64,000 bases of DNA from an archaeon (GCA_024276825.1 JAJRWI010000009.1:4902-68901), one strand, 5' to 3'; shown: positions 15,122 to 31,075, counted from the stretch's first letter. Notes: generated from the letters alone by a model not told the origin. Translations and numbers: made by a program.

Positions 15122-16623
15122 GGTATTAATGTGAAGGCGCCGTTTATTGCAAGTTCCATGATTATGCTGGGATTAAGAAATAGAATCACAGTCAGGGCAG
15201 CACAGATGATGACCGCCAGTGTTGGAATTCGGGGCAGTGTGATTCTTGACTCATCAGAGGGGTCTTCAAAGTAAGTGACCTTTAGCACTCGTAGGTAATA
15301 ACCCAGAGAGAACACCGAGTTGATAAGTCCAATCAATGCAAGCCACCACATACCAACTTCCACAGCGCTTTGGAATACGTACCACTTGGCCCAGAGACCC
15401 ACAGTGAACGGGATTCCAGCCAGAGATATCATGAATATGACTAGCATTCCCGCAGCTAATGGAGACCGTCTGCTCAATCCAGACAGATCTGCATAAGTGA
15501 TTTCTTTTGCAAGTCTGAGTGAGAGAATCCATATGAGAATGAATGCTCCGGCCTTTGTAATGGCATGTGCAAATGCATAGAACAGTGCTGCTGAGGCACC
15601 AAAGGAATTGGTTGCGGTAGTCGAGGCGATTCCGATGAACAGGTAGCCCATCTGGGCAATGGATGAAAATGCCAACATCTTGGTGATCGTTATCTTTGGA
15701 TCAAGTGCCAGTACATTGCCAATAATCATGGTTGCAACTGATACTATCACAATAAGCATGCTCCACTCAAAGCGTGCAACAAGGAACCCTACAAGGAGGA
15801 TTCGCATGAGGGCACTTATACCAGTCTTCTTGGTAGCGCCGGCCAAATACGAAACGACATTGCCATCGGAATTGCAATATGTGTCAGGGACCCATTGCCA
15901 GCCAGGGAATATACCAACTTTGAAGCCAAAGGCAATCACAAAAAGGATTAAGGCAAGAATCAGGGGGTATGCTGCTTCGCCAATTGGGGTTGTAGACCAG
16001 ATTGTGTTGGCTGCGGCAGCGATAACAGGAATTGATGTGGTCCCTATCACACCATAGACTATTGCAATGCCAAAGGCGAGAAGCATGCTAGAGAGCAGAC
16101 CAATAACCAAGTACTTTACAGCACCGTCAATAGACCCTCTGAATGGACCAAGCGCGACAAGCACGTAAGTTGGTGTGGACATCAACTCCCATGCCATGAA
16201 AAGGGCGACGAGATCATTTGCCATTACAACCCACATGGCTCCCGCGAAAGATATCAGAAATAGTGCGTTATAGATCCCTTTTGAGCCGCCATAACTTGTG
16301 GCAGAGAGCAAGACAATGAAGGCAACAAACAGGATGATATAGATGAAGAAGTCTGTGAAGGCATTTCTGATGAACAGACCACCAAATGAATTGGTTGGTG
16401 CGAGAATTATCATCTCGAGCCCTGAGAGAATCACGCCTATGAAACTGATGGGCAGGGGGTTCCAGCGGAGACCCACCATCAGGGCCAATAATGCAAATAC
16501 TATCAAGGTTATTGCCGGAAGCGAACCAATCCAGTCGCTTGGAACATAGGTTGTCATAAGATCTCTTATTGGACTTGCGATGAGTTCGAACAGTTGTAGT
16601 AGTGGGTCAAATATCTGGAACAT
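15118..16623 (-). CDS. nuoN: Complex I antiporter-like subunit N
   Basis: 14 TM, Mrp/NuoN-type. Motif GWQWVPDTYCNSDGNVVSYLAGATKKTGISALMRILL. Last gene of the tightly packed operon; its start overlaps the nuoM stop. Confidence 0.8.
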   Translation of the reverse strand: MFQIFDPLLQLFELIASPIRDLMTTYVPSDWIGSLPAITLIVFALLALMVGLRWNPLPISFIGVILSGLEMIILAPTNSFGGLFIRNAFTDFFIYIILFVAFIVLLSATSYGGSKGIYNALFLISFAGAMWVVMANDLVALFMAWELMSTPTYVLVALGPFRGSIDGAVKYLVIGLLSSMLLAFGIAIVYGVIGTTSIPVIAAAANTIWSTTPIGEAAYPLILALILFVIAFGFKVGIFPGWQWVPDTYCNSDGNVVSYLAGATKKTGISALMRILLVGFLVARFEWSMLIVIVSVATMIIGNVLALDPKITITKMLAFSSIAQMGYLFIGIASTTATNSFGASAALFYAFAHAITKAGAFILIWILSLRLAKEITYADLSGLSRRSPLAAGMLVIFMISLAGIPFTVGLWAKWYVFQSAVEVGMWWLALIGLINSVFSLGYYLRVLKVTYFEDPSDESRITLPRIPTLAVIICAALTVILFLNPSIIMELAINGAFTLIP

Positions 16624-18116
16624 TATGGAATCACCCCTAGCATGTTATCAACAGCTGGTGCTATTAGGTTCAATATCAAGTCAGGCCACACACCCAACAG
16701 AATGACGGGAATCATCATCAGAACAGGAGCAATTAGGTCACTCCAACTGGCCTCTTTAACTCCACTCTCAGGATCTGGCTCGCTAAAGACAATCCTGTTA
16801 AGAGTCCATAACAGATAGCCGACAGTTATGAAAATGCCAAATGCTATCAGCCCTGATAATGGATAGATCATTACTGCGCCAAAGATAATGAGCAACTCGG
16901 CAATAAAGCCACTAAAGCCCGGTAGTCCGAAAGCAGCAAATGATGCAAGGATAAGCAGGACCGACATTCTTGGGGCTTGCTTCAGGAGACCCTTGACCTT
17001 GGGGATCTCGCGAGTGCCAGCAGAATATTTCAACTGTCCTGCCATGATGAACATCACAGAGATGATTGTTCCATGGGAGAACATCATGAATACTGCACCC
17101 TGAATTGCCAGACTTGTTCCCACTGCCACTCCAAGTAAGACCCAAGACATGTGATTGATTGAGGTATAGGCGACCATACTCTTGAGATCAGTCTGGGCCA
17201 TTGCGGTGAATGCCGCATAAATGCATGTAAAGATGGCAAGAATTACGAATGGAATGCTGAGTCTTGCAAATGCATCAGGCACAAGCCAGACACCAAGACG
17301 GATGAAGGCGTATCCGCCCATCTTCAGCAGAATGCCAGCAAGAATTACAGACCCTGGAGTCGGCGCCTTTACATGAGCCCAAGGAAGCCAAGTGTGCATC
17401 GGAAACACAGGGAGTTTCACTCCAGCGCCCATAAACACCGCAAGAACATAGCCCATCTGCACCATCGATGGAAGACTCATGTCGCGGAGGGCTAACATAT
17501 TGAAGGTATGACCTCCGAAGAAGAAGATCACAAAAAAGCCCACAAGCATGATTGCTGAGCCAAAGTGTGTGAAGATAAAGAACTTGATGGCCGCATGTTT
17601 GCAACCCTCCTCACCCCATTTGCCAATTATGAAGAACATGGGGATTAAGACCAGTTCCCACATAACAAAGAATCCCACAAGGTCGATGGACATGAAGACT
17701 CCAAGCAGGCCGGTCTGCATGAACATGAATAATGAATAGTAAAGGCTCTGTGACTTGTTGATGTGGTTCGAGCTGATGGCTGCAATGAGAGTGACGATGT
17801 TGGACAATAGAATCATCACAACCGAGATACCATCAACTCCCAATGCGAGTTGCATGTTGGCCCAATCACCAGATACATAGATTCTGCCAAATGTGTAGGC
17901 CCATAGAAATGTCATGTCTGAGGAGGGATCAATACCAAGTGCCAGTAAAACTGCAAGTCCGAGTTCGAACAACGAAATTACCAGTGTGATTGCTCTTGCT
18001 GCCCGAGAACCGGTCAATAGAGATAGGAAAGCACCAATCAATGGCGCAAGCAGCATCAATGGCAGTATTGGTAGTGGCAAGCTCTGAAGTATCTGTAAGG
18101 CAAAGTCCAACTGCAA
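16623..18116 (-). CDS. nuoM: Complex I antiporter-like subunit M
   Basis: HTWLPWAHVKAPTPGSVILAGILLKMGGYAFIRL, an M-type signature. Abuts nuoL. Confidence 0.8.
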   Translation of the reverse strand: MQLDFALQILQSLPLPILPLMLLAPLIGAFLSLLTGSRAARAITLVISLFELGLAVLLALGIDPSSDMTFLWAYTFGRIYVSGDWANMQLALGVDGISVVMILLSNIVTLIAAISSNHINKSQSLYYSLFMFMQTGLLGVFMSIDLVGFFVMWELVLIPMFFIIGKWGEEGCKHAAIKFFIFTHFGSAIMLVGFFVIFFFGGHTFNMLALRDMSLPSMVQMGYVLAVFMGAGVKLPVFPMHTWLPWAHVKAPTPGSVILAGILLKMGGYAFIRLGVWLVPDAFARLSIPFVILAIFTCIYAAFTAMAQTDLKSMVAYTSINHMSWVLLGVAVGTSLAIQGAVFMMFSHGTIISVMFIMAGQLKYSAGTREIPKVKGLLKQAPRMSVLLILASFAAFGLPGFSGFIAELLIIFGAVMIYPLSGLIAFGIFITVGYLLWTLNRIVFSEPDPESGVKEASWSDLIAPVLMMIPVILLGVWPDLILNLIAPAVDNMLGVIP

Positions 18117-20303
18117 TCACAGCACCCCCATTATGACAAGAAGGATGATTATCATCACTCCAAGTCCAAAGATTATCATTGCAACATAATCGTTGATACG
18201 TCCCGTCTGCACAGTCATTCCCGTTCTGGATGCCTGCACACTCTGAGTGGCCACACCCTCAGCAAAGCCATCGATGACATGATCATCGAACCATCTAATC
18301 TTTCTCGACATCGTCTGTGCCAGTCTTGATGAACCAAAGTCAATGCCATCTATTATTCGATTGTCAATCTTTACACGCCACCACTCGACAAACCTCAAGA
18401 ACTTGTAAAGTACCCAGTAATAGAACTCGTTGATATACCAGCGATGTTTCAAAAAGCTGTAGACTCTTCTTCGGACTCCTCTTTCGGGAATGAGTGCATT
18501 GTTCTTACCTTCACCCTTGATGTAAATCATATATGCAGGAATGCCGCCCAGCGCCAATGCAGCCAGAGTGGCTCCAAAGGGTATCAGGCCAGGCATGGTG
18601 ATCTTGACTATAATCATTTCCATGAGAATCTCATCCCATGGAGTATCTGCAGCCAAGACAATGTTCTGAATTATCGGGTAAATGAGAAACGCGATTAGTG
18701 TGAATCCAGCAAGAATGTACAGTGGAATCATCATTGCAGGGCCCGGATCATGAGGCGAATTATGCGCCTCTTTATCTTGCATTTCATGATGCTCTTCTTC
18801 ATGGCCATAGAACACGATACCCATTAGTCTGATACTATAGAATATTGTGCACATAGCAGCCAAGACTGCAAGTATGAACAAGACCATTCCAAGCTGATTC
18901 AGAAACACACCTGCCTCAGAGGCCACTGCAAGCTCATATGTGTATTCGATGATTGAGTCTTTTGACCAGAACCCTGAGAATGGAGGAATTCCAGCAAGTG
19001 CTGCAACTCCAATCCACATCACCGCCAGGGTTCTTGGCATGTACTTCTTGAGACCACCCATTTTTGTCATGTACTTGGTATGAACCGCATGAATTACTCC
19101 GCCTGCTGCAAGGAATAGGAGAGCCTTGAAGGCACCATGACTGATGACATGAAGAACAGAAGAGAGATAGGCGGCTTCCCCAGCATGGAGGAGATGTTCA
19201 TTGGCCCCAATCAAAAGACCGCCAACGCCAATCGCCAACATCATGTAGCCCAGCTGACTTAGAGTAGAGAATGCCAGAACCTGCTTCATTTCGTTTGATG
19301 TCATACCCATGGTTGCTGTCATGAATGCAGTAATGGCACCAATGACAGCAATAACGAGGAAGAATGTCTGTGCACTGCCGAGCGAGATTAGAGAGGATTG
19401 AATATGTCCTGCAGCTTCCACAAGAGTGATGAGAAATCTGGCGCTTATGTATACTCCGGCCTTGACCATGGTGGCAGCATGAATTAGGGCAGAAACAGCA
19501 GTTGGACCTGCCATGGCCTCAGGCAGCCAAACCTGCAGTGGTGCCTGTCCGGACTTTCCAATCGCACCCATGAATATCAGCAGGAAGGTCGGTATCAGCA
19601 TTCCAGCCCCAACCATTGCTACAAACCATTCACCACTCTCAGCCATTTCAGTGAACATGAATGTTCCAGTGAAGAGAAATAGGAGAAGTATTCCCCCTAG
19701 CATAAAGGCGTCACCAATTCTTGTGACTATGAATGCCTTTGTGCCACAGTGTGTATTGTATTGACCCTCAGTCTTATAGTTCAGCAATGGATTGCTCTGA
19801 GGATAACCTGTGGGATCTTCTTCAGGAGGATTTCGTTTGTCGTTCCAGAAGCCAATCAGTCCATAGGAACAGAACCCCATTATCTCCCAGCCAATGAACC
19901 CGATCAATAGGTTGTTGCTCAATACAAGTGTCAGCATTCCGCCTCCGAAGGCAAGCATCAGGAAGAAGAATCGATCTTTGTCCTCTTCATGTGCCATATA
20001 TTCGGTACTGTAGACATAAATGAGGAAGCAGAGCGTGCTGGCCAGAACAGCCATAATAACCGACAGGGGATCCAATAAGACACCAAACTCAAGATGCAAT
20101 GAGGGAATCCACATCCAAGTTGTCTGTGTCTGAGGATTGTTGATCTCAAGGAGTAGCGACCAGCACAAGATCATAGTGATCCCCATCAGAATTGCGGGAG
20201 TCCAGTCTCTTAATTTCTGACTGAGCCTTCCAATCAGGGGGACGAATAATGAACCAGCAAGGGGAATCACAAGAATGATGTAATAGGGTAATCCGAACAG
20301 CAT
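18117..20303 (-). CDS. nuoL: Complex I antiporter-like subunit L (with long C-terminal lateral helix region)
   Basis: VWLPEAMAGPTAVSALIHAATMVKAGVY is the L-type signature. 728 aa with a C-terminal extension and a terminal TM. Confidence 0.85.
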   Translation of the reverse strand: MLFGLPYYIILVIPLAGSLFVPLIGRLSQKLRDWTPAILMGITMILCWSLLLEINNPQTQTTWMWIPSLHLEFGVLLDPLSVIMAVLASTLCFLIYVYSTEYMAHEEDKDRFFFLMLAFGGGMLTLVLSNNLLIGFIGWEIMGFCSYGLIGFWNDKRNPPEEDPTGYPQSNPLLNYKTEGQYNTHCGTKAFIVTRIGDAFMLGGILLLFLFTGTFMFTEMAESGEWFVAMVGAGMLIPTFLLIFMGAIGKSGQAPLQVWLPEAMAGPTAVSALIHAATMVKAGVYISARFLITLVEAAGHIQSSLISLGSAQTFFLVIAVIGAITAFMTATMGMTSNEMKQVLAFSTLSQLGYMMLAIGVGGLLIGANEHLLHAGEAAYLSSVLHVISHGAFKALLFLAAGGVIHAVHTKYMTKMGGLKKYMPRTLAVMWIGVAALAGIPPFSGFWSKDSIIEYTYELAVASEAGVFLNQLGMVLFILAVLAAMCTIFYSIRLMGIVFYGHEEEHHEMQDKEAHNSPHDPGPAMMIPLYILAGFTLIAFLIYPIIQNIVLAADTPWDEILMEMIIVKITMPGLIPFGATLAALALGGIPAYMIYIKGEGKNNALIPERGVRRRVYSFLKHRWYINEFYYWVLYKFLRFVEWWRVKIDNRIIDGIDFGSSRLAQTMSRKIRWFDDHVIDGFAEGVATQSVQASRTGMTVQTGRINDYVAMIIFGLGVMIIILLVIMGVL

Positions 20304-20313
20304 CTGTCACACC

Positions 20314-21843
20314 TCACGGAGTCGGAATGATATTAATCAGGTGACTGACTGCAGGCATAATCACATCCACAGCAAGCCCTGGGAATATTCCAAATAGCAC
20401 AATCAGCACGCCCAGTAGTATCTGGGGAATGATCATTGAGCGTGGACCCTCTTTGACATCTTCCAGCTCATCAGGATGAGGCCCGAGAAAGACCTTCCAG
20501 AGAAACCGCAGCATGTAGCCAGCACTAATGATTGAGCTCGAAACAGCAAAGATTGTCAGTATCAGAAAATTGAATGATCCAGTAGCATAATAGACTTGGA
20601 AGCCACCCAGAAACATCAACCATTCACTAGCAAAGCCTGAGAGGGGTGGGCTGCCTGCAATGCTCATGGCTCCGACTGCAGCCATAAATGCGGTGATTGG
20701 CATCTTATTGGAGAGACCGCCCATCTTATTGATATCTCTCAGACCTGTCTGATGGATAACTGTTCCAGCAGTCATGAACAACAGACCTTTTGAGAAGGCA
20801 TGATTAATCAGATGAAACATGCCTCCAGTCACGCCAAATGTGGAAAATGTGCCAAGGGCAAAGAGCACATAGCCCATTTGCGAAACTGATGAGTAAGCGA
20901 GCAGTCTCTTGATGTCCACTTGAACCAGTGCCATGAAGCCACCATAGAACATTGTGATGACGCCAATAGAACTGATGAAGAAAGCGAGGTCTCTGGCTGC
21001 TGAAAAGAGCATGATGTTTCCGAAGCGCATTAGAGCATAGGCACCGGTTTCAATCATTGCACCTGACAAGAGAACAGATATTGGAGTTGGAGCTTCAGCG
21101 TGAACGGGAGGTAGCCACCAATGGATTGGGAATACCGCCATCTTGACGAGAAACCCTGCAGCGAGTAAGATGAATATCACCTTGAGCATTCCAGAAGCAA
21201 TCAGTTCGCCAACAGCAGGCCCTCCAGCTATCAGAAATGCCTGAATGTCATTCAATACAAACATTCCTGTCACCATGTAGGTCAGTCCAAGGCCAACGAT
21301 TATGCAGACAGCTCCAGCCTGTGTGTAAAGCCAGAACTTCAGAGCTGTCCGCTGACGAGTTTCGGGTAGGCCCCAGAATAGTATCAGGAAATAGCTTGGG
21401 ACCAACATCAGCTCCCAGGCGATGAAGAACTCTACGATGTTAGTTGCAAGAGTGACCCATTGCATGCCCATTAGAAAGAACAGTTGATTTGCAAAGAAGG
21501 TCGACCTGTTCTCCATATGTTTCGTATAGCCGATAGCATAGACAACTGACAGGAATCCAAGGAATACTACAGCGAAAGTAATGGGAAATGCGACACCATC
21601 AAGAAACAGGCCAAATGAGCCCAAAACCGATGACCACTCGATAGACTCAAGGGCCACACCATTCTCGACCATCACACGATAGAACGGCGGTATCATGAGC
21701 AGCAAAGCAACAAAGGAGATTGCCGAGGCAACTTTTCCCGCATAGTTTTCAAATCGATCACCGTTCAGATATATCAACAGGCCGCCAAAGAACAGCACCA
21801 CGAGGGATGCTGTCATGAATGGAAATTCTACTATCTGCATCAT
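20314..21843 (-). CDS. Additional NuoM-like antiporter subunit (fourth antiporter-like subunit)
   Basis: FPIHWWLPPVHAEAPTPISVLLSGAMIETGAYALMRFG, an M-type motif. Sits between nuoI and nuoL. Its start overlaps the nuoI stop (ATGA). Confidence 0.75.
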   Translation of the reverse strand: MMQIVEFPFMTASLVVLFFGGLLIYLNGDRFENYAGKVASAISFVALLLMIPPFYRVMVENGVALESIEWSSVLGSFGLFLDGVAFPITFAVVFLGFLSVVYAIGYTKHMENRSTFFANQLFFLMGMQWVTLATNIVEFFIAWELMLVPSYFLILFWGLPETRQRTALKFWLYTQAGAVCIIVGLGLTYMVTGMFVLNDIQAFLIAGGPAVGELIASGMLKVIFILLAAGFLVKMAVFPIHWWLPPVHAEAPTPISVLLSGAMIETGAYALMRFGNIMLFSAARDLAFFISSIGVITMFYGGFMALVQVDIKRLLAYSSVSQMGYVLFALGTFSTFGVTGGMFHLINHAFSKGLLFMTAGTVIHQTGLRDINKMGGLSNKMPITAFMAAVGAMSIAGSPPLSGFASEWLMFLGGFQVYYATGSFNFLILTIFAVSSSIISAGYMLRFLWKVFLGPHPDELEDVKEGPRSMIIPQILLGVLIVLFGIFPGLAVDVIMPAVSHLINIIPTP

Positions 21844-22271
21844 CTGAATCTACTCCCTCGCCATTCTAGAGGATCCCTGTCTAGGGTTTCTATTCTTTCT
21901 GGATCGTAATGCAATCGCTCGCGTTCTGGCTCGCTCAGATCAACCACTTTAGTATGGAACAAGGCATTAAACCGACATGCTTGAACACAGAGGCCACAGA
22001 ATATGCATCGAGTATAGTCAAAATACAAGGCTGCATCCTTCTCATATTTGCGGTCAGACTTGTCAATTCTGATGGCCACGACAGGGCAGGCCCGCACACA
22101 TTGTGCGCATGCAGTACATTTCTCTCTAATGTGTATATGTCGGCCTCGTGTACGTTCAGGATGCTCCCGGTCCTCGTAGGGATAGAGCACCGTAAATGGT
22201 CGCTCAAAGACCTGACTGAACACATGTTTTAAGATTGTGAATATTTCTCCGAGAGTTGAAAAGAACCCCAT
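21840..22271 (-). CDS. nuoI: Complex I subunit I (2x[4Fe-4S] ferredoxin-like)
   Basis: CTACAQCVRACP and CIFCGLCVQACR cluster motifs. 143 aa. Confidence 0.85.
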   Translation of the reverse strand: MGFFSTLGEIFTILKHVFSQVFERPFTVLYPYEDREHPERTRGRHIHIREKCTACAQCVRACPVVAIRIDKSDRKYEKDAALYFDYTRCIFCGLCVQACRFNALFHTKVVDLSEPERERLHYDPERIETLDRDPLEWRGSRFR

Positions 22272-22275
22272 TTGC

Positions 22276-23415
22276 TTAACCTCCCATTACAAGGGCCGCA
22301 AGGCCATCAATGTATGCCAGTCCAAATAGCACAAGAATGATGTTCAGCATTGATAGTGGCAGCAAATATTTCCAGCAGTATCTTGTGATCTGGTCCTGCC
22401 TTAGTCTGTAAAATGAAGATGTCACTATAATGAAGAAGAACATCACAATCAAGAATTTGATTATAAAGTTGACAAATCCCGGTAGAAACGGAAGTCCTGA
22501 AGCTCCTCCAAAGAAAAGTACAACCATGAGTGCGCTATAGAGCATCTGTTCAGCAAACTCTGCAAAGTAGGTCAGAGTGAAATAGACACCAGAGAGTTCA
22601 GTTCTCCAGCCAAAAATAATCTCGGAGTCTGCAACAGGTGCATCAAACGGGAAGGTCCCAACAGCGACCACAGAGCTGACAAGGAAGGTAACAAAATTGA
22701 TCGGTAGCAGAAACACATACCACACCGAACTCTGAGCTCCTGAAATCGCCATTAGACTCAGAGACCCAGCAAGCAGGGCAGGACCAACTGAAGACATTAT
22801 GATGGGGATTTCTGCTGCAAACTGATTGTTTGCTGCTCGGAAACCACCTATCAATGAGTATTTAGAGCCGCTAATCCATCCAATCAGTAATGCCAGAATT
22901 GGTACTGCGGCTAGAAATGCAAACACTAGTACTAGGCTAACGCTAAGGTCAGCGATATACCAAGTTGCGTCCCAAGGTATGAAAGCGAAGGGCAGAAGGA
23001 CTATGACTAACAGGATTGATGGTAAGATGCGATACATCCAACGTCTTGAACCATCAGGAATGATGACCTCTTTGGAAATAAGCTTGATGGCATCAGCAAA
23101 GAGCTGCAGTCCACCAAATTTGCCCATATGAAACGGACCCCGTCGCATCTGGATTCGACCCCACATTTTTCGGGTGAACCAGACTGTATAGATCAGGGCA
23201 AGGACTACGAATATGAGTCCTGGAAATAAGATTGCCTTAATCAGAAAGTCGAGATTCAGGAAGACTAAATCCCAAATCCAGAATATAACACCCCAGACCC
23301 AGTTGTAGACCCAAAGGATGATTCCAACAATCCAGTTAACGACATCATAAACCCAGAAGATTAGCCCATAGACCCAATCAATCAGAATTTGAAACCAGTT
23401 GACTTGCATCATCAC
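22276..23415 (-). CDS. nuoH: Complex I subunit H with an unusual Trp-rich N-terminal repeat extension
   Basis: RKMWGRIQMRRGPFHMGKFGGLQLFADAIKLISKE is the NuoH signature. Residues 6-52 are NWFQILIDWVYGLIFWVYDVVNWIVGIILWVYNWVWGVIFWIWDLVFL. Confidence 0.85.
   Translation of the reverse strand: MMMQVNWFQILIDWVYGLIFWVYDVVNWIVGIILWVYNWVWGVIFWIWDLVFLNLDFLIKAILFPGLIFVVLALIYTVWFTRKMWGRIQMRRGPFHMGKFGGLQLFADAIKLISKEVIIPDGSRRWMYRILPSILLVIVLLPFAFIPWDATWYIADLSVSLVLVFAFLAAVPILALLIGWISGSKYSLIGGFRAANNQFAAEIPIIMSSVGPALLAGSLSLMAISGAQSSVWYVFLLPINFVTFLVSSVVAVGTFPFDAPVADSEIIFGWRTELSGVYFTLTYFAEFAEQMLYSALMVVLFFGGASGLPFLPGFVNFIIKFLIVMFFFIIVTSSFYRLRQDQITRYCWKYLLPLSMLNIILVLFGLAYIDGLAALVMGG
23260..23400 (-). repeat. 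Imperfect 21-nt (heptad) coding repeat at the nuoH 5' end
   Basis: Repeated heptad: ILIDWVY / GLIFWVY / DVVNWIV / GIILWVY / NWVWGVI / FWIWDLV. At DNA level the reiterated units are like aacccagtt, aatccagtt and gacccaatc. Confidence 0.5.
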
Positions 23416-23425
23416 TCTTATCCTC

Positions 23426-24562
23426 CTATCTGTCCCAAAGCCCGGGATATGGATCTAGACTTCCAAATATCACAATAAAGTCTGCAAAGCGCGATCCTGG
23501 CACTAGATGCTTTAAGGCATAGTATGAGGCAAAGCACGGGCCTCGAATCTTCGCCCTATAGGCGGTCTGTGCCTTTTCGGTCGTCTTCAACCAGAGGGAG
23601 GTTATTCCTCGTGTCCCTTCAACTCTGCCATATGCCTCGCCTTCAGGTAGTCTGTTTGCCTTTGCTCTTGCCTTTGGATCAATTATTGGACCTTCTGGAA
23701 TCTGAGGCAATAGCTGTCGTATTATGTTGATTGAGGTCTCAACCTCCAAAAACCGCTGAACCATTCTGTCGTAAGCATCGCTCTGGCCGGGATGCTCCTC
23801 ATTGTGAACCGTGGGCACTTCCCAGTCTGCAAGATCATAGGCGAGGTTGGAGTCGGGCTTGTCCTTTCGCAGGTCCATTGGCACCCCACACGCCTTGATG
23901 TTCGGTCCTGAGAGACCCCAACGTAGGCCCTGTTCTGCACTGAAGAGACCTACATTCTTTGTACGAAGACGAAATGTCGGGCCATGTAATAGCATATCTT
24001 TGAACTTCGGCAATCGTTCCTCGATCCGCAATAGTGCACGATCAAGTTTCTTGAGAAATTTGTCAGTAAAGTCGTATTTCACGCCGCCAGGAGTATTGAA
24101 TGAAACTGCATGACGAGAGCCTGTGAGTTCCTCAAAGGCATCTAGGAAGTATTCACGATCCACCCATGGCCATAATAGCATCGTGAATAGACCAAGTTCT
24201 GCTGCAAACTGCCCCCACCAGAACTGAAGACTATGGATTCGACTGGCCTCCATGAGAATTGTACGCATGATACGGGCACGTTCGGGAACCTCAAGTCCAG
24301 CAATCTGCTCAACCGCTGAAACATATGGATATTCCATAAGAAATGATTCAAGCATGCACAACCGCTCCATCACTAGGGGGCCCTGCCTGAAATTCCTAAA
24401 CTCCAGCACTTTTTCAGCAGAACGATGGAAGTAGCCAGCATGCGGGTCACATTCCACAATGTAATCACCAATGAGTGTCAGCTTAGCGGCCCAGCCATGT
24501 GCTGAAACATGTTGGGGGCCAAACCAGATCTCGATTGCTTCATCAAGAATGTCAGGACTCAT
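23426..24562 (-). CDS. nuoD: Complex I subunit D (49 kDa, quinone-binding; not a hydrogenase large subunit)
   Basis: GPQHVSAHG motif. No N-terminal RxCGxC or C-terminal DPCxxC NiFe-ligand motifs. Confidence 0.85.
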   Translation of the reverse strand: MSPDILDEAIEIWFGPQHVSAHGWAAKLTLIGDYIVECDPHAGYFHRSAEKVLEFRNFRQGPLVMERLCMLESFLMEYPYVSAVEQIAGLEVPERARIMRTILMEASRIHSLQFWWGQFAAELGLFTMLLWPWVDREYFLDAFEELTGSRHAVSFNTPGGVKYDFTDKFLKKLDRALLRIEERLPKFKDMLLHGPTFRLRTKNVGLFSAEQGLRWGLSGPNIKACGVPMDLRKDKPDSNLAYDLADWEVPTVHNEEHPGQSDAYDRMVQRFLEVETSINIIRQLLPQIPEGPIIDPKARAKANRLPEGEAYGRVEGTRGITSLWLKTTEKAQTAYRAKIRGPCFASYYALKHLVPGSRFADFIVIFGSLDPYPGLWDR

Positions 24563-25074
24563 TATTCATTCGCCTCCTTTGGTGGGCGTGGCTTGGGCTG
24601 CGGAAGTCCAGACTCTGCCAATCGACTGCGGTCAGTCATAAAGCTCTTTCTCATGGGATATCTTCCTACAAGTTCATCAGGAAGCAATAGAGGTCTGAGA
24701 TCGGGATGTCCCTTGAACTTGATACCGAACATCTCATGGGTCTCGCGCTCATGCCATTCAAGTCCAGCAATAATATCACTCACAGTATCAATCTCTGGGG
24801 GCTCGCCCTCAAGTAGAACCCGCACTTGAACCAGCAGTCTTTTGTTTCGCGACCAGAAGATGTAGATCATCTCATACTGATTGTTCCTTAGATCCACACC
24901 GAAGCACGATTCAGGAAACAGATCATTGATGTACTCGTCTAAGAATCTGATTACATCACGTATCTTCTCCGGAGCTGCTTTGATGTCCAGTCTGTCAATT
25001 GATGGCACTACTTCAATATCAGGCATCTTGTTGACCAGTTCCCGAGCCAGAGTCATTGCCTCACCATCACTCAT
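24562..25074 (-). CDS. nuoC: Complex I subunit C (30 kDa)
   Basis: EWHERETHEMFGIKFKGHPDLRPLLLPDE is the NuoC signature. The ORF is open to 25113, but Met codons at 25074 or 25056 are the more likely starts given the nuoK stop at 25067. Confidence 0.75.
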   Translation of the reverse strand: MSDGEAMTLARELVNKMPDIEVVPSIDRLDIKAAPEKIRDVIRFLDEYINDLFPESCFGVDLRNNQYEMIYIFWSRNKRLLVQVRVLLEGEPPEIDTVSDIIAGLEWHERETHEMFGIKFKGHPDLRPLLLPDELVGRYPMRKSFMTDRSRLAESGLPQPKPRPPKEANE

Positions 25075-25387
25075 CAGAAATCTCCTCCTGAACAACTGGG
25101 ACACCGAGGTCAATGGTCTGATATCTACGATGATACATGAGCATTAGTACCATGGCCAGAGCTGTATGAGCTGCAGCTACTGAAATAATCAGAATGACAA
25201 GACCTTGGCCAGTGAATGTAAAAGTGTCCAGATATAATGAGAATGCAACTAGAGCGATCATTACACCATTTCCCATGATTTCTGCGCTAATGATTATTCG
25301 AATGAGGTTTCTCTTCACCATCATTCCATATGCTCCAAGCCCAATGAGCATGAAAGCAAGTGCAAGATACCATGATAATGGAATCAT
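25067..25387 (-). CDS. nuoK: Complex I subunit K
   Basis: 106 aa, 3 TM, with IIISAEIMGNGVMIALVAFS and AAHTALAMVLMLM. Confidence 0.8.
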   Translation of the reverse strand: MIPLSWYLALAFMLIGLGAYGMMVKRNLIRIIISAEIMGNGVMIALVAFSLYLDTFTFTGQGLVILIISVAAAHTALAMVLMLMYHRRYQTIDLGVPVVQEEISDE

Positions 25388-25389
25388 CC

Positions 25390-26058
25390 TTATGTCCCCT
25401 CCTCTTCAGCATCCTGTGCCATTATGACAGGAACGGTGTCTTCTGATTTGTTTCCCGCCTTTGCTTTTTCAGAAGTGTCATCATCCCAGGTCGCTAAGCC
25501 ATATACACCACTCTCAGGGTTCAAATGCTCAGCCTTCTCAAGCTTAAGGATTGCAAGTGAACCAATTAATGATGTGAGAATAATTATCGCGATAAACTGA
25601 ACATATATTCCATGGTTACCCCAAAGCCATTGCGCAAGCCCTTCAAGGCTCTGAGCCAAGTCAACATTAACTGCAGGGATCTCAGTGGGCCAAGTGAATA
25701 AAAAGACCAGACTCCCGCTCAAGATTATTACAAATATTGAAAGAACAATTCCTAATCGCTTCTTTCTGATTGTCTCAAAGCGCTCGCGCGTTGTGTCATG
25801 AAAGATGGGAAGTAGTAATACTCCAAAGATTATCAGCACACTGATGCCTCCAGTGTAGACAGCAATCTGCATACCTGCAACAAAGGGGGCTTCAAGCAAT
25901 AGGAAAAAGCCTGCTACAAAGGAGGCCATTATTCCAAAGAAGAACACTGCATAGACCAAGTCTTTGTGTTCAAGAGCCAGTATTGCAAGAACAAGCACAA
26001 TTCCTGCAATTAGAAGGAATTCAATATGTTCGAGTAGTGCTTCAATCTGCATAAGCAT
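25390..26058 (-). CDS. nuoJ: Complex I subunit J
   Basis: GMQIAVYTGGISVLIIFGVLLL is J-type. Acidic C-terminal tail. Confidence 0.8.
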   Translation of the reverse strand: MLMQIEALLEHIEFLLIAGIVLVLAILALEHKDLVYAVFFFGIMASFVAGFFLLLEAPFVAGMQIAVYTGGISVLIIFGVLLLPIFHDTTRERFETIRKKRLGIVLSIFVIILSGSLVFLFTWPTEIPAVNVDLAQSLEGLAQWLWGNHGIYVQFIAIIILTSLIGSLAILKLEKAEHLNPESGVYGLATWDDDTSEKAKAGNKSEDTVPVIMAQDAEEEGT

Positions 26059-26492
26059 TAATGGTGAACCTCCTTTGTTTCATGCTTGGTTTTTGCCTCC
26101 CGATACAGCTTGAGGGTCTCCTCGCCAGACAGGAAGGTTTGCGGCAGAATCTTTACAGCAAACATGATTCCTGCCATTATGAACAGAGCAAAGAAAAGGA
26201 CCTGCCAGACAACCATCTTATCAAGTCGTAGTGCAGATACTGAGAACAACCAAAGAAAGGCGCCCATTACATCTACAACTAGAAACAAGATGGAATAGAC
26301 TATGTAATTATAGGGATATGAGACTCTTGCTGGACCAATTGGCTCTTCACCGCATTCATAGGTCGAGGTCTTCTCAGAGTTCTGCAACACATGGGGACGT
26401 AGCACCCATGAAGCAAGCAGCATAACAATAACCAGAACAACTGCAAGTATTGCCCATACCAGCACGGGGATGAAGTCCAGGAACAATCTCAT
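26058..26492 (-). CDS. nuoA: Complex I subunit A
   Basis: YECGEEPIGPARVSYPYNYIVYSILFLVVDV is the NuoA signature. First gene of the contiguous A-J-K-C-D-H-I-M'-L-M-N block. Confidence 0.8.
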   Translation of the reverse strand: MRLFLDFIPVLVWAILAVVLVIVMLLASWVLRPHVLQNSEKTSTYECGEEPIGPARVSYPYNYIVYSILFLVVDVMGAFLWLFSVSALRLDKMVVWQVLFFALFIMAGIMFAVKILPQTFLSGEETLKLYREAKTKHETKEVHH

Positions 26493-27025: not shown

Positions 27026-27550
27026 TCATGATGTGCTTTCTTCTGATTGGTCTCCTGCAGAAGGCACTGTTTCAGTTTTGGGTTTCTTTTCAGGTTCAGG
27101 CTCTGGCTCAGGCGCAGGCTTAGGGCCATAATGGAGAGCACTCACATCCATTATCCCAAGAGTCGTGGCCTGATCATAGCTGTGTCTCATGGAGAAACCC
27201 AAAGCAACAACAATTGCACTCCCAATACCCCAAGTTGTGAGAAACACCCCTCCAACAGGGTAGGAGATCACAAGGTATAATGCAGAGAGAAAGATTGCCA
27301 ATGCGAGCATGTTGATCCTCAACTTCTTCCTCTTTGGTCTGAAATAGCCAATGAATAAAAACACAAGAAGCACAGGGATTATTATCAGTGATAGAAATCT
27401 CCCGCCGAGAGATGCGATGAAGTCAGCCTGCAAGAACTGGTTATAGAAGAAATTGAAGTAATATGCTGCAAAGAAGAGTATTCCAACCCACAATGTGCAG
27501 TATGGATCAGCATCCTCACGAAGTCTTGGTGTTCTTGACTCAGAACTCAT
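27026..27550 (-). CDS. Small 4-TM membrane protein with Pro/Glu-rich C-terminal tail, translationally coupled to the FAD-oxidase::NuoB gene
   Basis: ATG at 27550-27548 overlaps the TGA stop of the upstream gene (ATGA). Four TM segments, then PKPAPEPEPEPEKKPKTE. The ORF-track N-terminal 15-aa extension was trimmed. Confidence 0.5.
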   Translation of the reverse strand: MSSESRTPRLREDADPYCTLWVGILFFAAYYFNFFYNQFLQADFIASLGGRFLSLIIIPVLLVFLFIGYFRPKRKKLRINMLALAIFLSALYLVISYPVGGVFLTTWGIGSAIVVALGFSMRHSYDQATTLGIMDVSALHYGPKPAPEPEPEPEKKPKTETVPSAGDQSEESTS

Positions 27551-29556
27551 TTGATCAACCCCATTGCATCTTGGCTCTCGTGTTTGAGTTGCCAATGAGT
27601 AGTGCCTGCTCGAATCTTATTCTCTAGAATGATATGAGCACGAACAAAGTCAGATGGCTTGGGCGGGCAGCCAGGCAGATAGACATCAACAGGAACAATT
27701 GACTCTGGAGAAGTGACCAAGGAATAGCCATCCCAGAAAAGGCCCCCACTTGCAGCACATTGACCGAAAGAGATGACGAACTTTGGTTCGGGCATCTGTT
27801 CATAGATGCGCCTGAGTCGTGGAGCCATCTTCTTAGTGAGTGATCCTGAGATCCACAAAACATCACATTGACGTGGACCAAAGAGAGGCAGCATTCCGAA
27901 CCGCTCAATGTCCCATCGTGATGCAACTGCTGCAGCACCATCGACCATGCAGCAGCCAAGTCCATATTGTACAGGCCAAGGACTGTGAGCTCTGCCCCAA
28001 CGAAGTATCCATTTAACAGGAGGCAAGTTCTGAAGCCATTTTAAGAATATTGGCGCGATCCTACCAAAGCCGTTTCTGAATAGGTCGAATCCCAACCACA
28101 TGAAATACTTGCCAACCCGTAATATGAAAGGTAACCAGAAGGCAAAGATCTTGCCTGGATTTGATATCTCCTTTGGGTCATACTTTAGCTTTGCAGCGCG
28201 AATCTTTCCAAGGCGTCGCTTGCCAAAGTACTGCGGAGCATAGTTTGCGAACCAGATGCCTGTGGAATGTGGATGTCCACCATGACGCTGTGCAATCTTG
28301 AATATCACAAAGCTCTGAGACCAGCTTAGCATGAAAAAGTGTCTGCGTTCATCCTCGAGAAAATAGCCCATCATTGTCACGCCATTCTTAGAGGTCACAT
28401 AGCCATCGATCCCTGCTCTTGCAGATGCCTGCTCAAACTGAAAGTCATCAAGAATTGCCTCTAAGTTTTCTAGTGGGGCAAATGCTTGGCCGACCACTAA
28501 TGTTGGACCAGCCTTTTTGATCTTCATTGGATAGAAACGTTCATGCCACTCATGTTCAGCAACTTGATCATCATAAACAGTACCTTTGAGTTCTGCTGTG
28601 ACCCTCTTCACTACTTCGATACCTTCCTCGATCTCTTCTTCAGGGCCATCATATGCCACCAGCATTACACAGTGATGTACTGGAAATGGAAATCGCTCTT
28701 TCTTATCCCATATTCGTTTCTTTAAGTCAACATATTTGCTCTCTTCGAACTTGATTGTATGTGGAAGAGGCCCCTCCTCAATTATCTTCTCTATTGCGAA
28801 CACCATTAGATAGTTCTCTGGAAAGCTTGCGACAATGGCCTTTATCTTTGTAAGTGGCTTTACTTTGAGTTTGATCTTAGTGATAATGCCAAGAATGCCC
28901 TCAGTGTCGCAGAACAGTTCGCGATCCTTGCTCTTCACAATTCTACCTGTTGGAATGACCACTTCAAACTCAAGCACATTTTCGTTGATATTCCCGTACT
29001 TTAGGGAGCCGATGCCATCACCGCCTTGAGCAACCCAACCGCCAATAGTGGCAGCAAGTCCTGACGATGGGTAAGCACGCAGATCAAGTCCTTGCCTGTT
29101 CAACTCAAACTGAAGGTTTGCCCAGGAAATTCCTGGTTCTACAACAACAGTCAGGTTCTCTTTGTCAATCTCTATTATTGAGTCCATTCTACGCATGTCA
29201 ACAATTATTCCACCTTTGCGTGGGATGGCACCGCCATATCCCGAGGTGCCTGCCCCGCGGGGGACAATTGGAATCTCTTCTTGATTGGCGAATTCATAGA
29301 GAGCCTTAATCTCTTCGGGTGTAGTGGGCTGAACAATGGCATCAGGTTTGTTGTTCATCAACCAGCCTACTTGTTTTGGCAGAGAACCGACATCCATCGA
29401 GTCGATGATGAGCTCATGTTTTTCAAGAATAACACGATCACCAAAGAGTTCTTTGAGCCTATCGACATGATGTTTTTTCAGTTTCAATTGGCTTTCTCCT
29501 TTCAGTTCTGAGTGGTTGCCATCAATCTTAATGGAATAAAAAATGTTCCCATTCAC
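27547..29556 (-). CDS. Fusion protein: FAD-linked oxidase (GlcD / D-lactate dehydrogenase type) N-terminal approx. 470 aa plus complex I subunit B (NuoB, N2-cluster subunit) C-terminal approx. 165 aa
   Basis: N-terminal PCMH FAD-binding motif PDAIVQPTTPEEIKALYEFANQEEIPIVPRGAGTSGYGGAIP. The FAD-oxidase C-terminal domain ends KLKYDPKEISNPGK. The C-terminus is unmistakably NuoB: WGRAHSPWPVQYGLGCCMVDG, ERFG...GPRQCDVLWISGSLTKKMAPRLRRIYEQMPEPKFVISFGQCAASGG and VPVDVYLPGCPPKP. All four N2-cluster cysteines are present. Single continuous 669-codon ORF. Confidence 0.8.
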   Translation of the reverse strand: MNGNIFYSIKIDGNHSELKGESQLKLKKHHVDRLKELFGDRVILEKHELIIDSMDVGSLPKQVGWLMNNKPDAIVQPTTPEEIKALYEFANQEEIPIVPRGAGTSGYGGAIPRKGGIIVDMRRMDSIIEIDKENLTVVVEPGISWANLQFELNRQGLDLRAYPSSGLAATIGGWVAQGGDGIGSLKYGNINENVLEFEVVIPTGRIVKSKDRELFCDTEGILGIITKIKLKVKPLTKIKAIVASFPENYLMVFAIEKIIEEGPLPHTIKFEESKYVDLKKRIWDKKERFPFPVHHCVMLVAYDGPEEEIEEGIEVVKRVTAELKGTVYDDQVAEHEWHERFYPMKIKKAGPTLVVGQAFAPLENLEAILDDFQFEQASARAGIDGYVTSKNGVTMMGYFLEDERRHFFMLSWSQSFVIFKIAQRHGGHPHSTGIWFANYAPQYFGKRRLGKIRAAKLKYDPKEISNPGKIFAFWLPFILRVGKYFMWLGFDLFRNGFGRIAPIFLKWLQNLPPVKWILRWGRAHSPWPVQYGLGCCMVDGAAAVASRWDIERFGMLPLFGPRQCDVLWISGSLTKKMAPRLRRIYEQMPEPKFVISFGQCAASGGLFWDGYSLVTSPESIVPVDVYLPGCPPKPSDFVRAHIILENKIRAGTTHWQLKHESQDAMGLIK

Positions 29557-29848
29557 AATTCAAGAGTAAATAATGGAGAATTATTGAACATTTTTTCAGA
29601 TCTATTCGTTGATTTGCATACATGGTCCAATGAAATAAGCATACTTCAAGCATCTGATTTGTTTCCTGATAAGAAGTCTTGATTAAGATCGCACCTGCCA
29701 AGAAGGAACAAAATAGTTCAGTGATTACAAAATGGCAATCAATTATTAATTATCTTTGACAGTGATTTGAATATCCTTATTTGGGAAAAGTATTAGTGGG
29801 AGGAAAAACGCCAAAGAGCCTAACTGGAAATTCATTGAGGTATCGATT

Positions 29849-31075
29849 ATGCGATTCTCAACTCTGAACAAGTTTGGTCTTCAAGACATTCCATTCACTT
29901 GCGCTCAATGCAGCTTTTGTCAGGTAGGCAATGGCGCATGTCCTACCTACAAGGTCAAACGAAGAAACAGCTATTCAGGCAAGGGAAAGATGGTTCTCAC
30001 TAGATCCTTGATGCAGGGCCGATTAAGTAAGAATGATGGTCTTGAAGGTCTACGCGATGCAATATTTGGCTGCACGCTTTGCGGCGGTTGCGAGGAGATT
30101 TGCCAAGTGGACATTCCATTTGTTCAGATCTATCAACTCATGCGTGCAGAGTTTTTGAAGCGCGGCATGTGGCCAGAACAACTTGTGCCAATGCGTGAAA
30201 CCCTTGTTAAGGAGAGAAACATTCAAGGACAATGGAATGGCGACAGAGTTGAGGGTTGGTCATATTGGCATCCTGATGAGGATGAGTTATTAGAACATGT
30301 GGGCCGCAAAGCCAAGACTGCTTTCTATGTGGGCTGCACATCCTCGTTTAGGGGCATTCCAATTCAGGCCACCATAGCCACTACTCTTATTATGGAAAAG
30401 ACAGGTGAGGATTACACCCTGCTTGGTGAGGAAGAGTGGTGTTGTGGGGCCCCATTAATCATGACTGGAGATTTCGACACAGCAAGGCAATTTGCAGAGC
30501 ATAATATCGCAGCATATCAGGAGTTGGGTGTTGAGAAGATTGTGACCAACTGTCCAGGATGCTACAAGATGTGGGCACATGAATATCATGAGTTTCTTGA
30601 AATAGATGTTCCATTTGAGGTCCAATATGGTGCCCAGTATCTTGCTGAGCTCGTTGATGATAACAGGCTCACTGGACTCTCCAATCCACTAGATGTGTCA
30701 ATCACTTTTCATGACGGATGTGATGCTGGCAGGAATTGTGGAATTTATGAAGAGCCTCGTAAGGTGCTCGAATATCTCCCAGGCGTTGAATTTGAAGAGC
30801 TTCCTCATAATAAGAACCGTTGCTATTGTTGTGGCTCTGGGGGTGTGCTTCGTCCAGTCGATGCAGACTTTGCAATCCAGATTAACAGACTCAAGGTCAA
30901 GGACATTGAACAGACAAATGCGGATTTGGTGATTTCTGCGTGCCCGTCATGTGTTGATTTCATGTATGACCAGTTGCCGCAAGCAAGCTCAAATCGAATC
31001 AGCAAGGATCTTGCAGTCATAGTGGCTCAGGCACTTGGTCTCACATGGGATGGTCTAGAAGAAACTTATGGTTAG
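29849..31075 (+). CDS. GlcF/HdrD/LutA-like Fe-S oxidoreductase (2x[4Fe-4S] ferredoxin motifs plus two CCG cysteine-rich domains)
   Basis: Cluster motifs CAQCSFCQVGNGACP and CTLCGGCEEICQ. CCG domains at WCCGAP and CYCCGSGG. Divergently transcribed from the FAD-oxidase::NuoB gene. Confidence 0.75.
   Translation: MRFSTLNKFGLQDIPFTCAQCSFCQVGNGACPTYKVKRRNSYSGKGKMVLTRSLMQGRLSKNDGLEGLRDAIFGCTLCGGCEEICQVDIPFVQIYQLMRAEFLKRGMWPEQLVPMRETLVKERNIQGQWNGDRVEGWSYWHPDEDELLEHVGRKAKTAFYVGCTSSFRGIPIQATIATTLIMEKTGEDYTLLGEEEWCCGAPLIMTGDFDTARQFAEHNIAAYQELGVEKIVTNCPGCYKMWAHEYHEFLEIDVPFEVQYGAQYLAELVDDNRLTGLSNPLDVSITFHDGCDAGRNCGIYEEPRKVLEYLPGVEFEELPHNKNRCYCCGSGGVLRPVDADFAIQINRLKVKDIEQTNADLVISACPSCVDFMYDQLPQASSNRISKDLAVIVAQALGLTWDGLEETYG

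Follow-up and report, generated by a model that had tools for sequence, protein, structure and literature searches.

In the 64,000-nucleotide stretch of archaeal DNA analysed here (GCA_024276825.1, JAJRWI010000009.1:4902-68901; "the window"), the only NuoB subunit of a complex-I locus is encoded as the C-terminal part of a single protein whose N-terminal part is a flavoprotein with the fold that binds flavin adenine dinucleotide (FAD), and the gene of an iron-sulphur protein with two CCG domains lies divergently beside it. The fusion, its conservation, the co-inheritance of the partner protein, the family features of both and the synteny with menaquinone genes are seen directly. The reading that we favour, at a probability of about 0.4, is that the locus encodes a menaquinone-linked FAD/iron-sulphur dehydrogenase attached to the foot of a complex I that is headless and has two NuoM subunits, possibly with reverse electron flow to ferredoxin.

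The fusion gene and its conservation

The joining of an FAD oxidase to NuoB in one open reading frame (ORF), which an initial annotation of the window had proposed, is borne out both by the family matches, which exceed the Pfam and NCBIfam cut-offs, and by the frame itself. The frame runs through 669 codons without interruption (27547..29556, minus strand, with GTG 29556 as the first codon), but the length of 669 residues given in the annotation is probably not that of the protein: since the homologues are almost all of 646 residues and have their first residue at the position of TTG 29487, ahead of which stands a GGAG, translation probably begins at TTG 29487, 23 codons inside the frame that the GTG opens. 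The profile searches that the annotation had called for matched all three families, FAD_binding_4, FAD-oxidase_C and Oxidored_q6, above the Pfam gathering scores (for Oxidored_q6, residues 536-640, E 4e-23, 82 bits vs 27; domain boundaries are given in Table 1), and the motifs PIVPRGAGTSGYGGAIP, NPGK, GLGCC, GQC and PGCPP are present in the protein.

The NuoB half had been described as retaining the hallmarks of its family and the four cysteine ligands of cluster N2, and it does. In addition to carrying the GLGCC, GQC and PGCPP motifs it scores above the NCBIfam cut-offs for NuoB (NF005012, 178.5 vs 116; TIGR01957, 170.9 vs 142.7), and the solved structures nearest to it are complex-I NuoB/Nqo6/PSST chains (E 1.7e-41), far ahead of MbsJ, MbhJ and HycG. 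By these comparisons it is a bona fide complex-I NuoB. A tblastn search finds no second NuoB-like sequence within the 64-kb window, so that the C-terminus of the fusion is the sole NuoB of the locus, as had been claimed.

The tail that links the flavin domains to NuoB has a hydrophobic moment (muH) of 0.4-0.6, and AlphaFold2 (AF2) places helices in it at residues 451-472 and 474-485 (646-residue numbering). It abuts the start of the conserved NuoB core, where it stands in place of the approximately 25 N-terminal residues of a free NuoB. Because unfused orthologues of the flavoprotein (P0050/P0051) keep the tail through PPLKW, it derives from the C-terminal tail of the flavoprotein itself. The unfused orthologue from another Thor lineage (L082; loci used for comparison are designated by such numbers) is 59% identical and has the whole tail to ...PPLKW, the point at which NuoB starts in the fusion.

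A search for the same fusion in related genomes and metagenome-assembled genomes (MAGs), which the annotation had suggested as a check, found the same junction and three-domain architecture in at least 45 clusters (formed at the 90% identity level) at 75-91% identity among 5.8 billion proteins. The sources are NCBI, JGI, ENA and Logan assemblies, nearly all of the named ones being independent assemblies of Candidatus Thorarchaeota, and they include the closed 3.16-Mb chromosome CP070761. Among 1.84 billion representatives at 50% identity, searched with HMMER, only one cluster (P0022) spans residues 26-668, and a contig scan dominated by matches to the conserved NuoB peptide YEQMPEPK gave a Thor fusion at one of 80 loci (L001). 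The fusion is confined to one clade, as a lineage-specific feature of Thorarchaeia.

Since the FAD-fold residues, Arg340, His430 and the N2 cysteines are each invariant in all 45 aligned full-length fusion proteins, both halves look functional. Conservation in the same alignment is 0.88 in the 45-residue junction segment, 0.83 in the flavin domains and 0.92 in the NuoB domain. In the comparison with the CP070761 orthologue (locus L081), synonymous sites have reached saturation, whereas the non-synonymous divergence (pN) amounts to 0.05-0.16 over the three regions; the fusion is under purifying selection. The possibility that a glcD-like gene and a separate nuoB have been falsely joined by an assembly or frameshift error is refuted for practical purposes, both by the recurrence of the junction in these clusters, which come from independent projects and assemblers and include a closed chromosome, and by the conservation of the linker at the protein level despite the saturation of its synonymous sites.

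The flavoprotein and its CCG partner

The description of the flavin half as being of the GlcD/D-lactate-dehydrogenase type holds for the two-domain FAD fold; it fails for the GlcD equivalog score and for the metal site. A profile built from 17 sequences, used in place of pairwise phmmer alignments because these were unreliable in the cap domain, matches mouse LDHD (E 6e-57), A. woodii LctD (8e-53) and a chain of 9QGZ deposited as glycolate oxidase (3e-47). Foldseek comparison of the AF2 model of the flavin half gives LDHD at a TM-score of 0.85, LctD at 0.80 and alkyl-dihydroxyacetone-phosphate synthase (AGPS) at approximately 0.68. The fusion fails the GlcD equivalog cut-offs (TIGR00387, 150.9 vs 567.9; NF008408, 102 vs 897). 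It is best classified not as a GlcD but as a member of a separate subfamily with the LDHD/LctD fold. The distinguishing features of this subfamily are the motifs W-x-E-R-F-Y-P-M-R-I-K and G-G-[RH]-P-[YH]-S-T-G-[IL]-W, together with an amphipathic tail of 30-50 residues after NPGK, and its members come from Thor- and Bathyarchaeota, Hydrothermarchaeota, Heimdall and Hod archaea, Nitrospinota, Bacillota and other groups.

The metal ligands of LctD are His377, His384 and Glu422; His423 has been proposed as the base, and the carboxylate is held by Arg328 (PMC9232219); the counterpart of the metal site in mouse LDHD is His405, as the H405A structure entries point to. In the profile alignment the His-His-Glu site is absent from the fusion, the aligned positions being Tyr/Thr, Val/Met and Pro. 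The register of the two metal-histidine positions in the LDHD alignment is offset by two residues from that in the alignment with LctD, a histidine stands in neither register, and no conserved histidine is found in the metal-ligand segment across the subfamily. Because all three metal ligands are missing, the chemistry of the flavin half is predicted not to be that of the characterised LDHD/LctD-type enzymes. Within HEWHERFYPMKIKK of the cap domain, Arg340 is aligned with LctD Arg328 and the arginine of ERFYPM is invariant, and within GGHPHSTGIW, His430 is aligned with LctD His423. The base position (the second histidine of GGHPH) is a histidine in the fusions and in P0050/P0051 and a tyrosine in the rest of the subfamily. 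Since the arginine is conserved and the base position is a histidine, a carboxylate-bearing, 2-hydroxyacid-like substrate is plausible for the predicted enzyme; glycolate or D-lactate, which the annotation had named, is a guess, given the failed GlcD cut-off and the absent metal site.

Two other roles for the flavin domain may be weighed at this point. Lipid chemistry like that of AGPS is suggested by the closeness of AGPS as a structural neighbour and by the isoprenoid genes that adjoin the locus, but it is unsupported, the H-x-H that resembles the HHH loop of AGPS being present only in the fusion clade and replaced by R-P-Y elsewhere in the subfamily. It is also conceivable that the domain has lost its enzymatic function and now acts in the structure or assembly of the complex, as the loss of the metal triad might indicate; the structure matches include a VAO-family protein on complex I (7A24 chain z, "GLDH") as a precedent, and GlcE in glycolate oxidase is a comparable case. 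This is nevertheless very improbable, because the FAD-binding motif is as invariant as Arg340 and His430, because the triad is missing from the whole subfamily, free enzymes included, and because a redox partner with four clusters is conserved together with the domain.

That partner is, as had been noted, a divergently encoded GlcF/HdrD-like protein with two [4Fe-4S] motifs and two CCG domains, matched by Fer4_8 and twice by the CCG family, and its cysteine motifs are readable in the translation. The gap of about 290 nucleotides given for it corresponds to 292 nucleotides from the GTG start of the fusion gene, or 361 from the likelier TTG. The protein falls below every NCBIfam cut-off (TfrB 163.5 vs 385, GlcF 64 vs 333, GlpC 107 vs 278, LdhH 124 vs 800), its best match there being the thiol:fumarate reductase TfrB, and it is best described as HdrD/GlcF/TfrB/GlpC-like and as an equivalog of none of these. 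Its orthologue group extends over 63-100% identity, after which identity falls to 39%, and the longest contigs of the partner orthologues match in size those of the fusion proteins; the partner is co-inherited with the fusion. It has 408 residues in fused and unfused lineages alike, and therefore no new docking element arose in it; no CCG-Nuo fusion occurs among its 120 closest homologues.

Since single-chain FAD-CCG proteins of 870-1030 residues occur naturally in the same flavoprotein subfamily in many organisms, the FAD protein and the CCG partner in all likelihood form one enzyme. This enzyme seems able to work without complex I. At the locus of the unfused orthologue (L082) the same partner gene and the UbiA, polyprenyl synthase and geranylgeranyl-reductase-like (GGR) genes lie alongside, and no nuo genes are found nearby in the 21.5 kb examined.

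The subfamily appears to have been attached repeatedly to membrane redox complexes, by differing means. Thor paralogues of 573-575 residues, encoded in tandem FAD/CCG pairs, have C-terminal hydrophobic segments that read as transmembrane (TM) helices. In a Hydrothermarchaeota MAG (JBHIEG010000010; L084, 3758-10657) a relative of the flavoprotein forms the C-terminus of an NrfD-type subunit in a protein of 867 residues, and the cluster also contains an NrfC-like iron-sulphur protein with four clusters, a 132-residue protein, a CCG protein and two genes whose Pfam matches to multihaem cytochromes are merely faint or weak. This cluster may be read as a second, independent case of an FAD/CCG head wired to a membrane redox complex. 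Several tandem paralogous flavoprotein/CCG pairs are present in Thorarchaeota (L086, 543-10855; L081, 1-5334), and those of L086 adjoin the cytochrome c maturation genes CcmB/C/E.

The complex-I core and the path of the electrons

No nuoB, nuoE, nuoF or nuoG is found in the operon at 15118..26492, and no NuoE/F/G or FpoF domain among the window ORFs scanned, which agrees with the annotation's description of a complex-I locus without nuoEFG or an fpoF-like gene. The four antiporter-like subunits (15118-21843, minus strand) consist of two NuoM proteins, a long NuoL and NuoN. The ORFs of 509 and 497 residues both pass the NuoM model TIGR01972 (297 and 437, respectively, vs 263.8), and the NuoL, at 728 residues against a model of 615-630 positions, is matched in two stretches. 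With a second NuoM, a lengthened NuoL and no NuoEF, the complex is assigned to the headless "2M" type. The use of ferredoxin and reverse transport from quinol to ferredoxin are among the proposals reported for 2M-type complexes in the part of PMC6606698 that cites Chadwick 2018. Movement of a fifth proton, or a bias towards reverse electron transport, is also ascribed to the 2M architecture.

The locus is linked to menaquinone because the UbiA-family protein of the window passes the MenA cut-off and because MenA-type, polyprenyl synthase and GGR-like genes are syntenic with it. The related loci L081, L091 and L092 have the same layout as the window, giving four genome contexts in which a divergent CCG gene is followed by the fusion gene, a TM gene of 152-224 residues, a gene of approximately 117 residues on the opposite strand and nuoA-J-K-C-D-H-I-M-L-.... 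Ahead of the CCG gene stand MutS, a GGR-like gene and a polyprenyl synthase in L091 and L092, with UbiA there in L092 too, and further FAD/CCG pairs and PNPOx-type genes in L081. Synteny of the GGR, polyprenyl synthase and UbiA type is also seen in L082 and L090. In L092 approximately 6 kb, including a UbiE/MenG-type methyltransferase gene (15999-17093), is inserted before nuoA, and the pair formed by the fusion and the TM protein and the nuoA-N genes are therefore separate transcription units. The insert also holds a HAMP/HATPase sensor kinase and a TPR protein.

The free NuoB proteins of relatives suggest how the fusion arose. In L089, a more distant relative, the gene order is J-K-B-C-D-H-I. 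The closest free NuoB, at 63% identity, is that of L090, where it lies after nuoA and divergent from nuoJKCDHI, with GGR, polyprenyl synthase, UbiA and CCG genes a few kilobases away. Because of these two arrangements, and of the menaquinone and CCG genes near the L090 nuoB, it appears that nuoB moved out of the operon and joined a flavoprotein gene that was already in a menaquinone/respiratory neighbourhood.

Where the flavoprotein sits on the complex, how the electrons pass at each step, what is oxidised and which way the flow runs are what we infer. In the favoured reading, the dehydrogenase would be cytoplasmic and lie on the membrane surface, and its FAD domain would oxidise an organic substrate, probably a carboxylate-bearing, 2-hydroxyacid-like one, with transfer of a hydride to FAD; the partner would receive the electrons in its two [4Fe-4S] and two CCG clusters and reduce menaquinone at the membrane surface beside the mouth of the complex-I quinone chamber, and ferredoxin docked at NuoI would be connected with that quinone by the complex-I core. 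Complex I would serve as the anchor in place of the TM helices or the NrfD protein of the relatives, giving a fixed unit of dehydrogenase and complex I, and the most useful net reaction in these anaerobes, taken as fermentative or acetogenic, would be flow from the substrate, a mid-potential organic donor, through menaquinol to ferredoxin, driven in reverse by the proton-motive force. Structures of the Thermus complex show the first Nqo6 helix at the boundary with the membrane arm, and all input modules known to us bind at the far end, to NuoI or NuoG. The fusion attaches to the N-terminal portion of NuoB that helps to line the quinone chamber, and not to the NuoI end. The CC ligands of N2 lie in this N-terminal portion, as do the majority of NuoB's quinone-chamber residues (PMC4758237).

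The energetics bear on the direction of flow. The potentials are -190 mV for pyruvate/D-lactate, approximately -90 mV for glyoxylate/glycolate, -74 mV for menaquinone and -400 to -500 mV for ferredoxin. From such textbook potentials, the transfer of two electrons from D-lactate to menaquinone yields approximately 22 kJ, which pays for approximately 1.5 H+, and other 2-hydroxyacids yield at most 22 kJ; moving 4-5 H+ against approximately 150 mV costs 58-72 kJ. The energy of the lactate-to-menaquinone step is too small because a pump with four antiporter-like subunits would be expected to move 4-5 H+, and the reverse direction is favoured because of this shortfall and of the 2M architecture.

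A number of observations weigh against this reading, some of them in NuoD. The quinone-ligating tyrosine at position 87 (Thermus numbering), which is present in 54/54 canonical NuoD homologues (D-R-x-D/E-Y), is Met or Leu in 60/60 Thor-clade sequences (Met in 58), the window motif being R-L-C-M-L-E, and NuoD keeps the first NiFe-ligand cysteine (C85 of MbsL, position 86 in Thermus), so that canonical quinone chemistry in this complex is not assured. His38 is retained in 60/60 Thor-clade sequences, and a clade-specific tyrosine stands at the third NiFe-ligand position (C-terminal D-P-Y, in SLDPYPG). The best match of the window NuoD in the PDB is MbsL of the Pyrococcus MBS (E 4e-56), followed by Thermus Nqo4 (3e-54). 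The absence of Tyr87 was considered as a sign, linked to the fusion, of an acceptor other than quinone, and was rejected as such: the NuoD of L090, a sister with free NuoB, likewise has Ser-Met for Asp-Tyr and the same C-terminal tyrosine, and since it shows the substitution, Tyr87 was lost before the fusion. The non-quinone readings stay alive nonetheless, because NuoD lacks the residue. It counts further against the favoured reading that L081 and L091 have no MenA gene next to the locus; that the tail doubles as an interdomain linker in soluble-looking FAD-CCG single-chain proteins, and may dock the partner instead of binding the membrane; that in the AF2 model, where the flavin half has a predicted local distance difference test (pLDDT) score of 85-97, the NuoB half is below 50 and the interdomain geometry is unreadable, the alignment having contained only homologues more than 84% identical; and that a covalent tether is hard to explain if the electrons use a diffusible quinone.

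The initial annotation had proposed a hydroxyacid:menaquinone oxidoreductase built on complex I, in which the FAD and CCG proteins replace NuoEFG or FpoF and electrons run from the substrate through FAD and the iron-sulphur clusters to NuoI (N6a/N6b), N2 and menaquinone, with proton pumping. One part of this proposal stands, namely the tether of a predicted substrate-oxidising flavoprotein to the Q-module. As a pumping replacement of the N-module, which the missing NuoEFG/FpoF domains, the dehydrogenase fold, the 1:1 stoichiometry assured by the fusion and a conserved 45-residue two-helix tail that could span 30-60 Å would all suit, it is nevertheless unlikely. The junction is at the part of NuoB that lines the Q-chamber and not at NuoI, where all known donors dock (PMC4758237, together with general knowledge); a potential difference of about 0.1 V or less between 2-hydroxyacids and menaquinone is too little for a pump with four antiporter-like subunits; the enzyme pair is conserved elsewhere without a nuo gene nearby; and the partner has neither gained an element in the fused lineage nor, among its 120 closest homologues, been found joined to a Nuo protein.

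Flow in the opposite sense, out of the complex, would make the pair an output module, in which ferredoxin would supply NuoI, the Q-module would hand the electrons on to FAD and the HdrD-like CCG protein, and these would reduce a soluble acceptor (at the CCG site a disulfide, at the flavin an oxo-acid or enoate), in an ion pump that is independent of quinone. The direct binding of HdrD that is assumed for the headless Fpo-like complex in the relevant part of PMC7374477, the TfrB match of the partner, and a NuoD without Tyr87 whose best solved match belongs to the quinone-independent MBS are consistent with this, yet the loss of Tyr87 is older than the fusion, NuoD still has His38 and NuoB the CC motif of N2, menaquinone genes flank the locus, flavoenzymes of the VAO/GlcD type normally oxidise their substrates, and in no complex-I relative is a route from N2 to an external cluster known. 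We regard it as somewhat less probable still than the N-module replacement. The more general proposition that the FAD/HdrD-like pair is wired straight into the Q-module, as a bound redox partner at its N2/quinone-chamber end, without free quinone, coupling the redox chemistry of a soluble substrate to ion translocation, is a tentative one and falls well short of the menaquinone-linked reading.

Gene neighbourhood, known systems and implications

Table 1. Features of the window around the fusion gene (residue numbers of the fusion protein follow the 669-residue frame)
Feature	Coordinates	Strand	Remarks
Fusion gene (FAD flavoprotein, tail, NuoB)	27547..29487	-	646 residues from TTG 29487
FAD_binding_4	28933..29346	-	residues 71-208; Pfam E 2e-40; contains PIVPRGAGTSGYGG
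FAD-oxidase_C (substrate/cap domain)	28147..28842	-	residues 239-470; Pfam E 1.6e-12
Tail/linker	28012..28146	-	residues 471-515; aromatic-rich, amphipathic, two predicted helices
NuoB (Nqo6/PSST) domain	27550..28011	-	residues 516-669; N2 ligands Cys535, Cys536, Cys600, Cys630
Fe-S/CCG partner protein, 408 residues	29849..31075	+	Fer4_8 at residues 17-89; two CCG domains (109 bits)
Membrane protein, 174 residues, ~4 TM, acidic Pro/Glu tail	27026..27550	-	ATG overlaps fusion TGA (ATGA)
Conserved membrane protein, 121 residues	26656..27021	+	wedged between fusion/TM unit and nuoA
Remaining complex-I-like operon	15118..26492	-	profile matches
nuoA	26058-26492	-	
nuoJ	25390-26058	-	
nuoK	25067-25387	-	
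nuoC	24562-25113	-	
nuoD	23426-24562	-	
nuoH	22276-23415	-	
nuoI	21840-22271	-	
nuoM-like	20314-21843	-	
nuoL, 728 residues	18117-20303	-	
nuoM	16623-18116	-	
nuoN	15118-16623	-	
MenA-type prenyltransferase (UbiA family)	31072-32136	-	TIGR00751 120.8 vs cut-off 102.15
Polyprenyl synthase	32334-33401	+	Pfam
Geranylgeranyl-reductase-like (GGR) flavoprotein	33414-34643	-	Pfam

The small membrane protein with about four TM segments and a Pro/Glu tail, whose translational overlap with the fusion gene had been pointed out and is read in the sequence, matches no known family in Pfam or NCBIfam. It is 39% identical to the L081 copy (E 6e-35), a gene of 152-224 residues occupies the equivalent position in L081, L091 and L092, and it is a possible accessory subunit. 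The 121-residue membrane protein likewise has no family match in Pfam or NCBIfam; it is 42% identical to its L081 counterpart (12580-12930), and its position is kept in the same three loci (approximately 117-121 residues).

Further genes of the window may be recorded beside these. An ORF of the ADP-forming acyl-CoA synthetase type (CoA_binding_2 + Succ_CoA_lig; 34742-36190, plus strand) adjoins the menaquinone genes, and a gene of this type also adjoins the unfused flavoprotein gene in L082; its product could possibly provide a substrate-level phosphorylation step of the same pathway. MutS, with five domains (37861-40467, plus strand), and MutL (45660-47459, plus strand) are complete genes of bacterial type in this archaeal window, and MutS is syntenic with the GGR and polyprenyl synthase genes in L082, L091 and L092. 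Approximately 1.7 kb past the end of the nuo operon lies an ORF of 2252 residues (6661-13419, minus strand) that is hydrophobic over nearly its whole length, with dozens of predicted TM segments and no Pfam match. Two other long ORFs, of 1942 residues (50517-56345, minus strand) and 2437 residues (56589-63902, minus strand), have no Pfam match and a sole, weak match to DUF7743, respectively.

The closest parallel among known systems is the Fpo-like complex of Methanomassiliicoccales, which together with HdrD has been proposed to act as a ferredoxin:heterodisulfide oxidoreductase (Lang 2015, Kroninger 2016/2019, as covered in the review PMC7374477). As far as that coverage goes, both systems have an 11-subunit complex-I homologue without an input module and a soluble CCG iron-sulphur partner instead of, or besides, free quinone; there the association is inferred, there is no flavoprotein, and the acceptor is CoM-S-S-CoB, whereas here the link is covalent, by way of an FAD subunit on NuoB, in a non-methanogen with menaquinone genes adjacent. 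The 2M-type complexes share the second NuoM, the long NuoL and the absence of NuoEF, but a flavoprotein on NuoB is not described for them in the account of Chadwick et al. 2018 given by PMC6606698, and the position of nuoB outside the operon is a further difference. LDHD (8JDx), LctD (7QH2) and the GlcD of GlcDEF have in common with the flavin half the VAO/PCMH two-domain fold, the carboxylate-binding arginine, the base histidine and a GlcF-like CCG partner; the fusion differs from them in lacking the metal site, in scoring far below the GlcD cut-off and in possessing the extra amphipathic tail.

Fusions that involve NuoB have been described before, and a 2025 survey of complex-I variants lists CD and BCD fusions only (PMC12361115). 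In NuoBCD and NuoCD (NF009808; PMC12361115) neighbouring core subunits are joined at the C-terminus of NuoB, whereas here a foreign enzyme is joined at its N-terminus. The other systems that place a cytoplasmic CCG protein on a quinone-handling membrane module (HdrDE, DsrMKJOP, Hmc/Tmc, GlpABC and the SdhE-type succinate:quinone reductase, SQR), whose layout the NrfD::FAD relative of L084 shares, use a cytochrome b or an NrfD protein as the membrane module and not a complex-I pump as here. Plant GLDH lies on the other side of the membrane arm and acts as an assembly factor. It too is a flavoprotein of the FAD_binding_4 family bound to complex I (chain z of 7A24, an assembly intermediate), but it is bound non-covalently and is unrelated to NuoB. 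The MBS of P. furiosus (6U8Y) shares the relic NiFe cysteine and the missing Tyr87 in NuoD/MbsL; the present complex differs from it in having a NuoB with the complex-I CC motif and four cysteine ligands, in keeping His38, and in a gene content of the Nuo and not the Mrp type.

The annotation was aware of no described example of the fusion, and a full-text literature search, which included work on Thorarchaeota NuoB, found no description of it, an earlier mention in passing being possible. The named fusion proteins in public records mostly carry the label "NADH-quinone oxidoreductase subunit NuoB", and public annotation thus conceals the flavoprotein.

In the complex-I relatives known to us, electrons enter or leave by a small set of modules, namely NuoEFG, FpoF, ferredoxin or flavodoxin docking on NuoI and, at the NuoB/NuoD chamber, quinone, protons or polysulfide. 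A flavoenzyme placed covalently on NuoB would be a new way of plugging metabolism into a complex-I pump, and its occurrence in Asgard archaea concerns a bioenergetics that bears on models of the origin of eukaryotes. The fusion is in addition a natural "Rosetta stone" for the communication of HdrD/GlcF-type CCG proteins with headless complex I, and since the tether fixes the stoichiometry, the complex should be well suited to structure prediction and cryo-electron microscopy (cryo-EM). If the pair were wired directly into the Q-module, the locus would represent a new class of energy-converting enzyme, such as an organic-acid:ferredoxin oxidoreductase driven by the proton-motive force in Asgard archaea, and the fusion would be the first hard genetic evidence for the docking, long assumed, of HdrD-type proteins on headless complex I.

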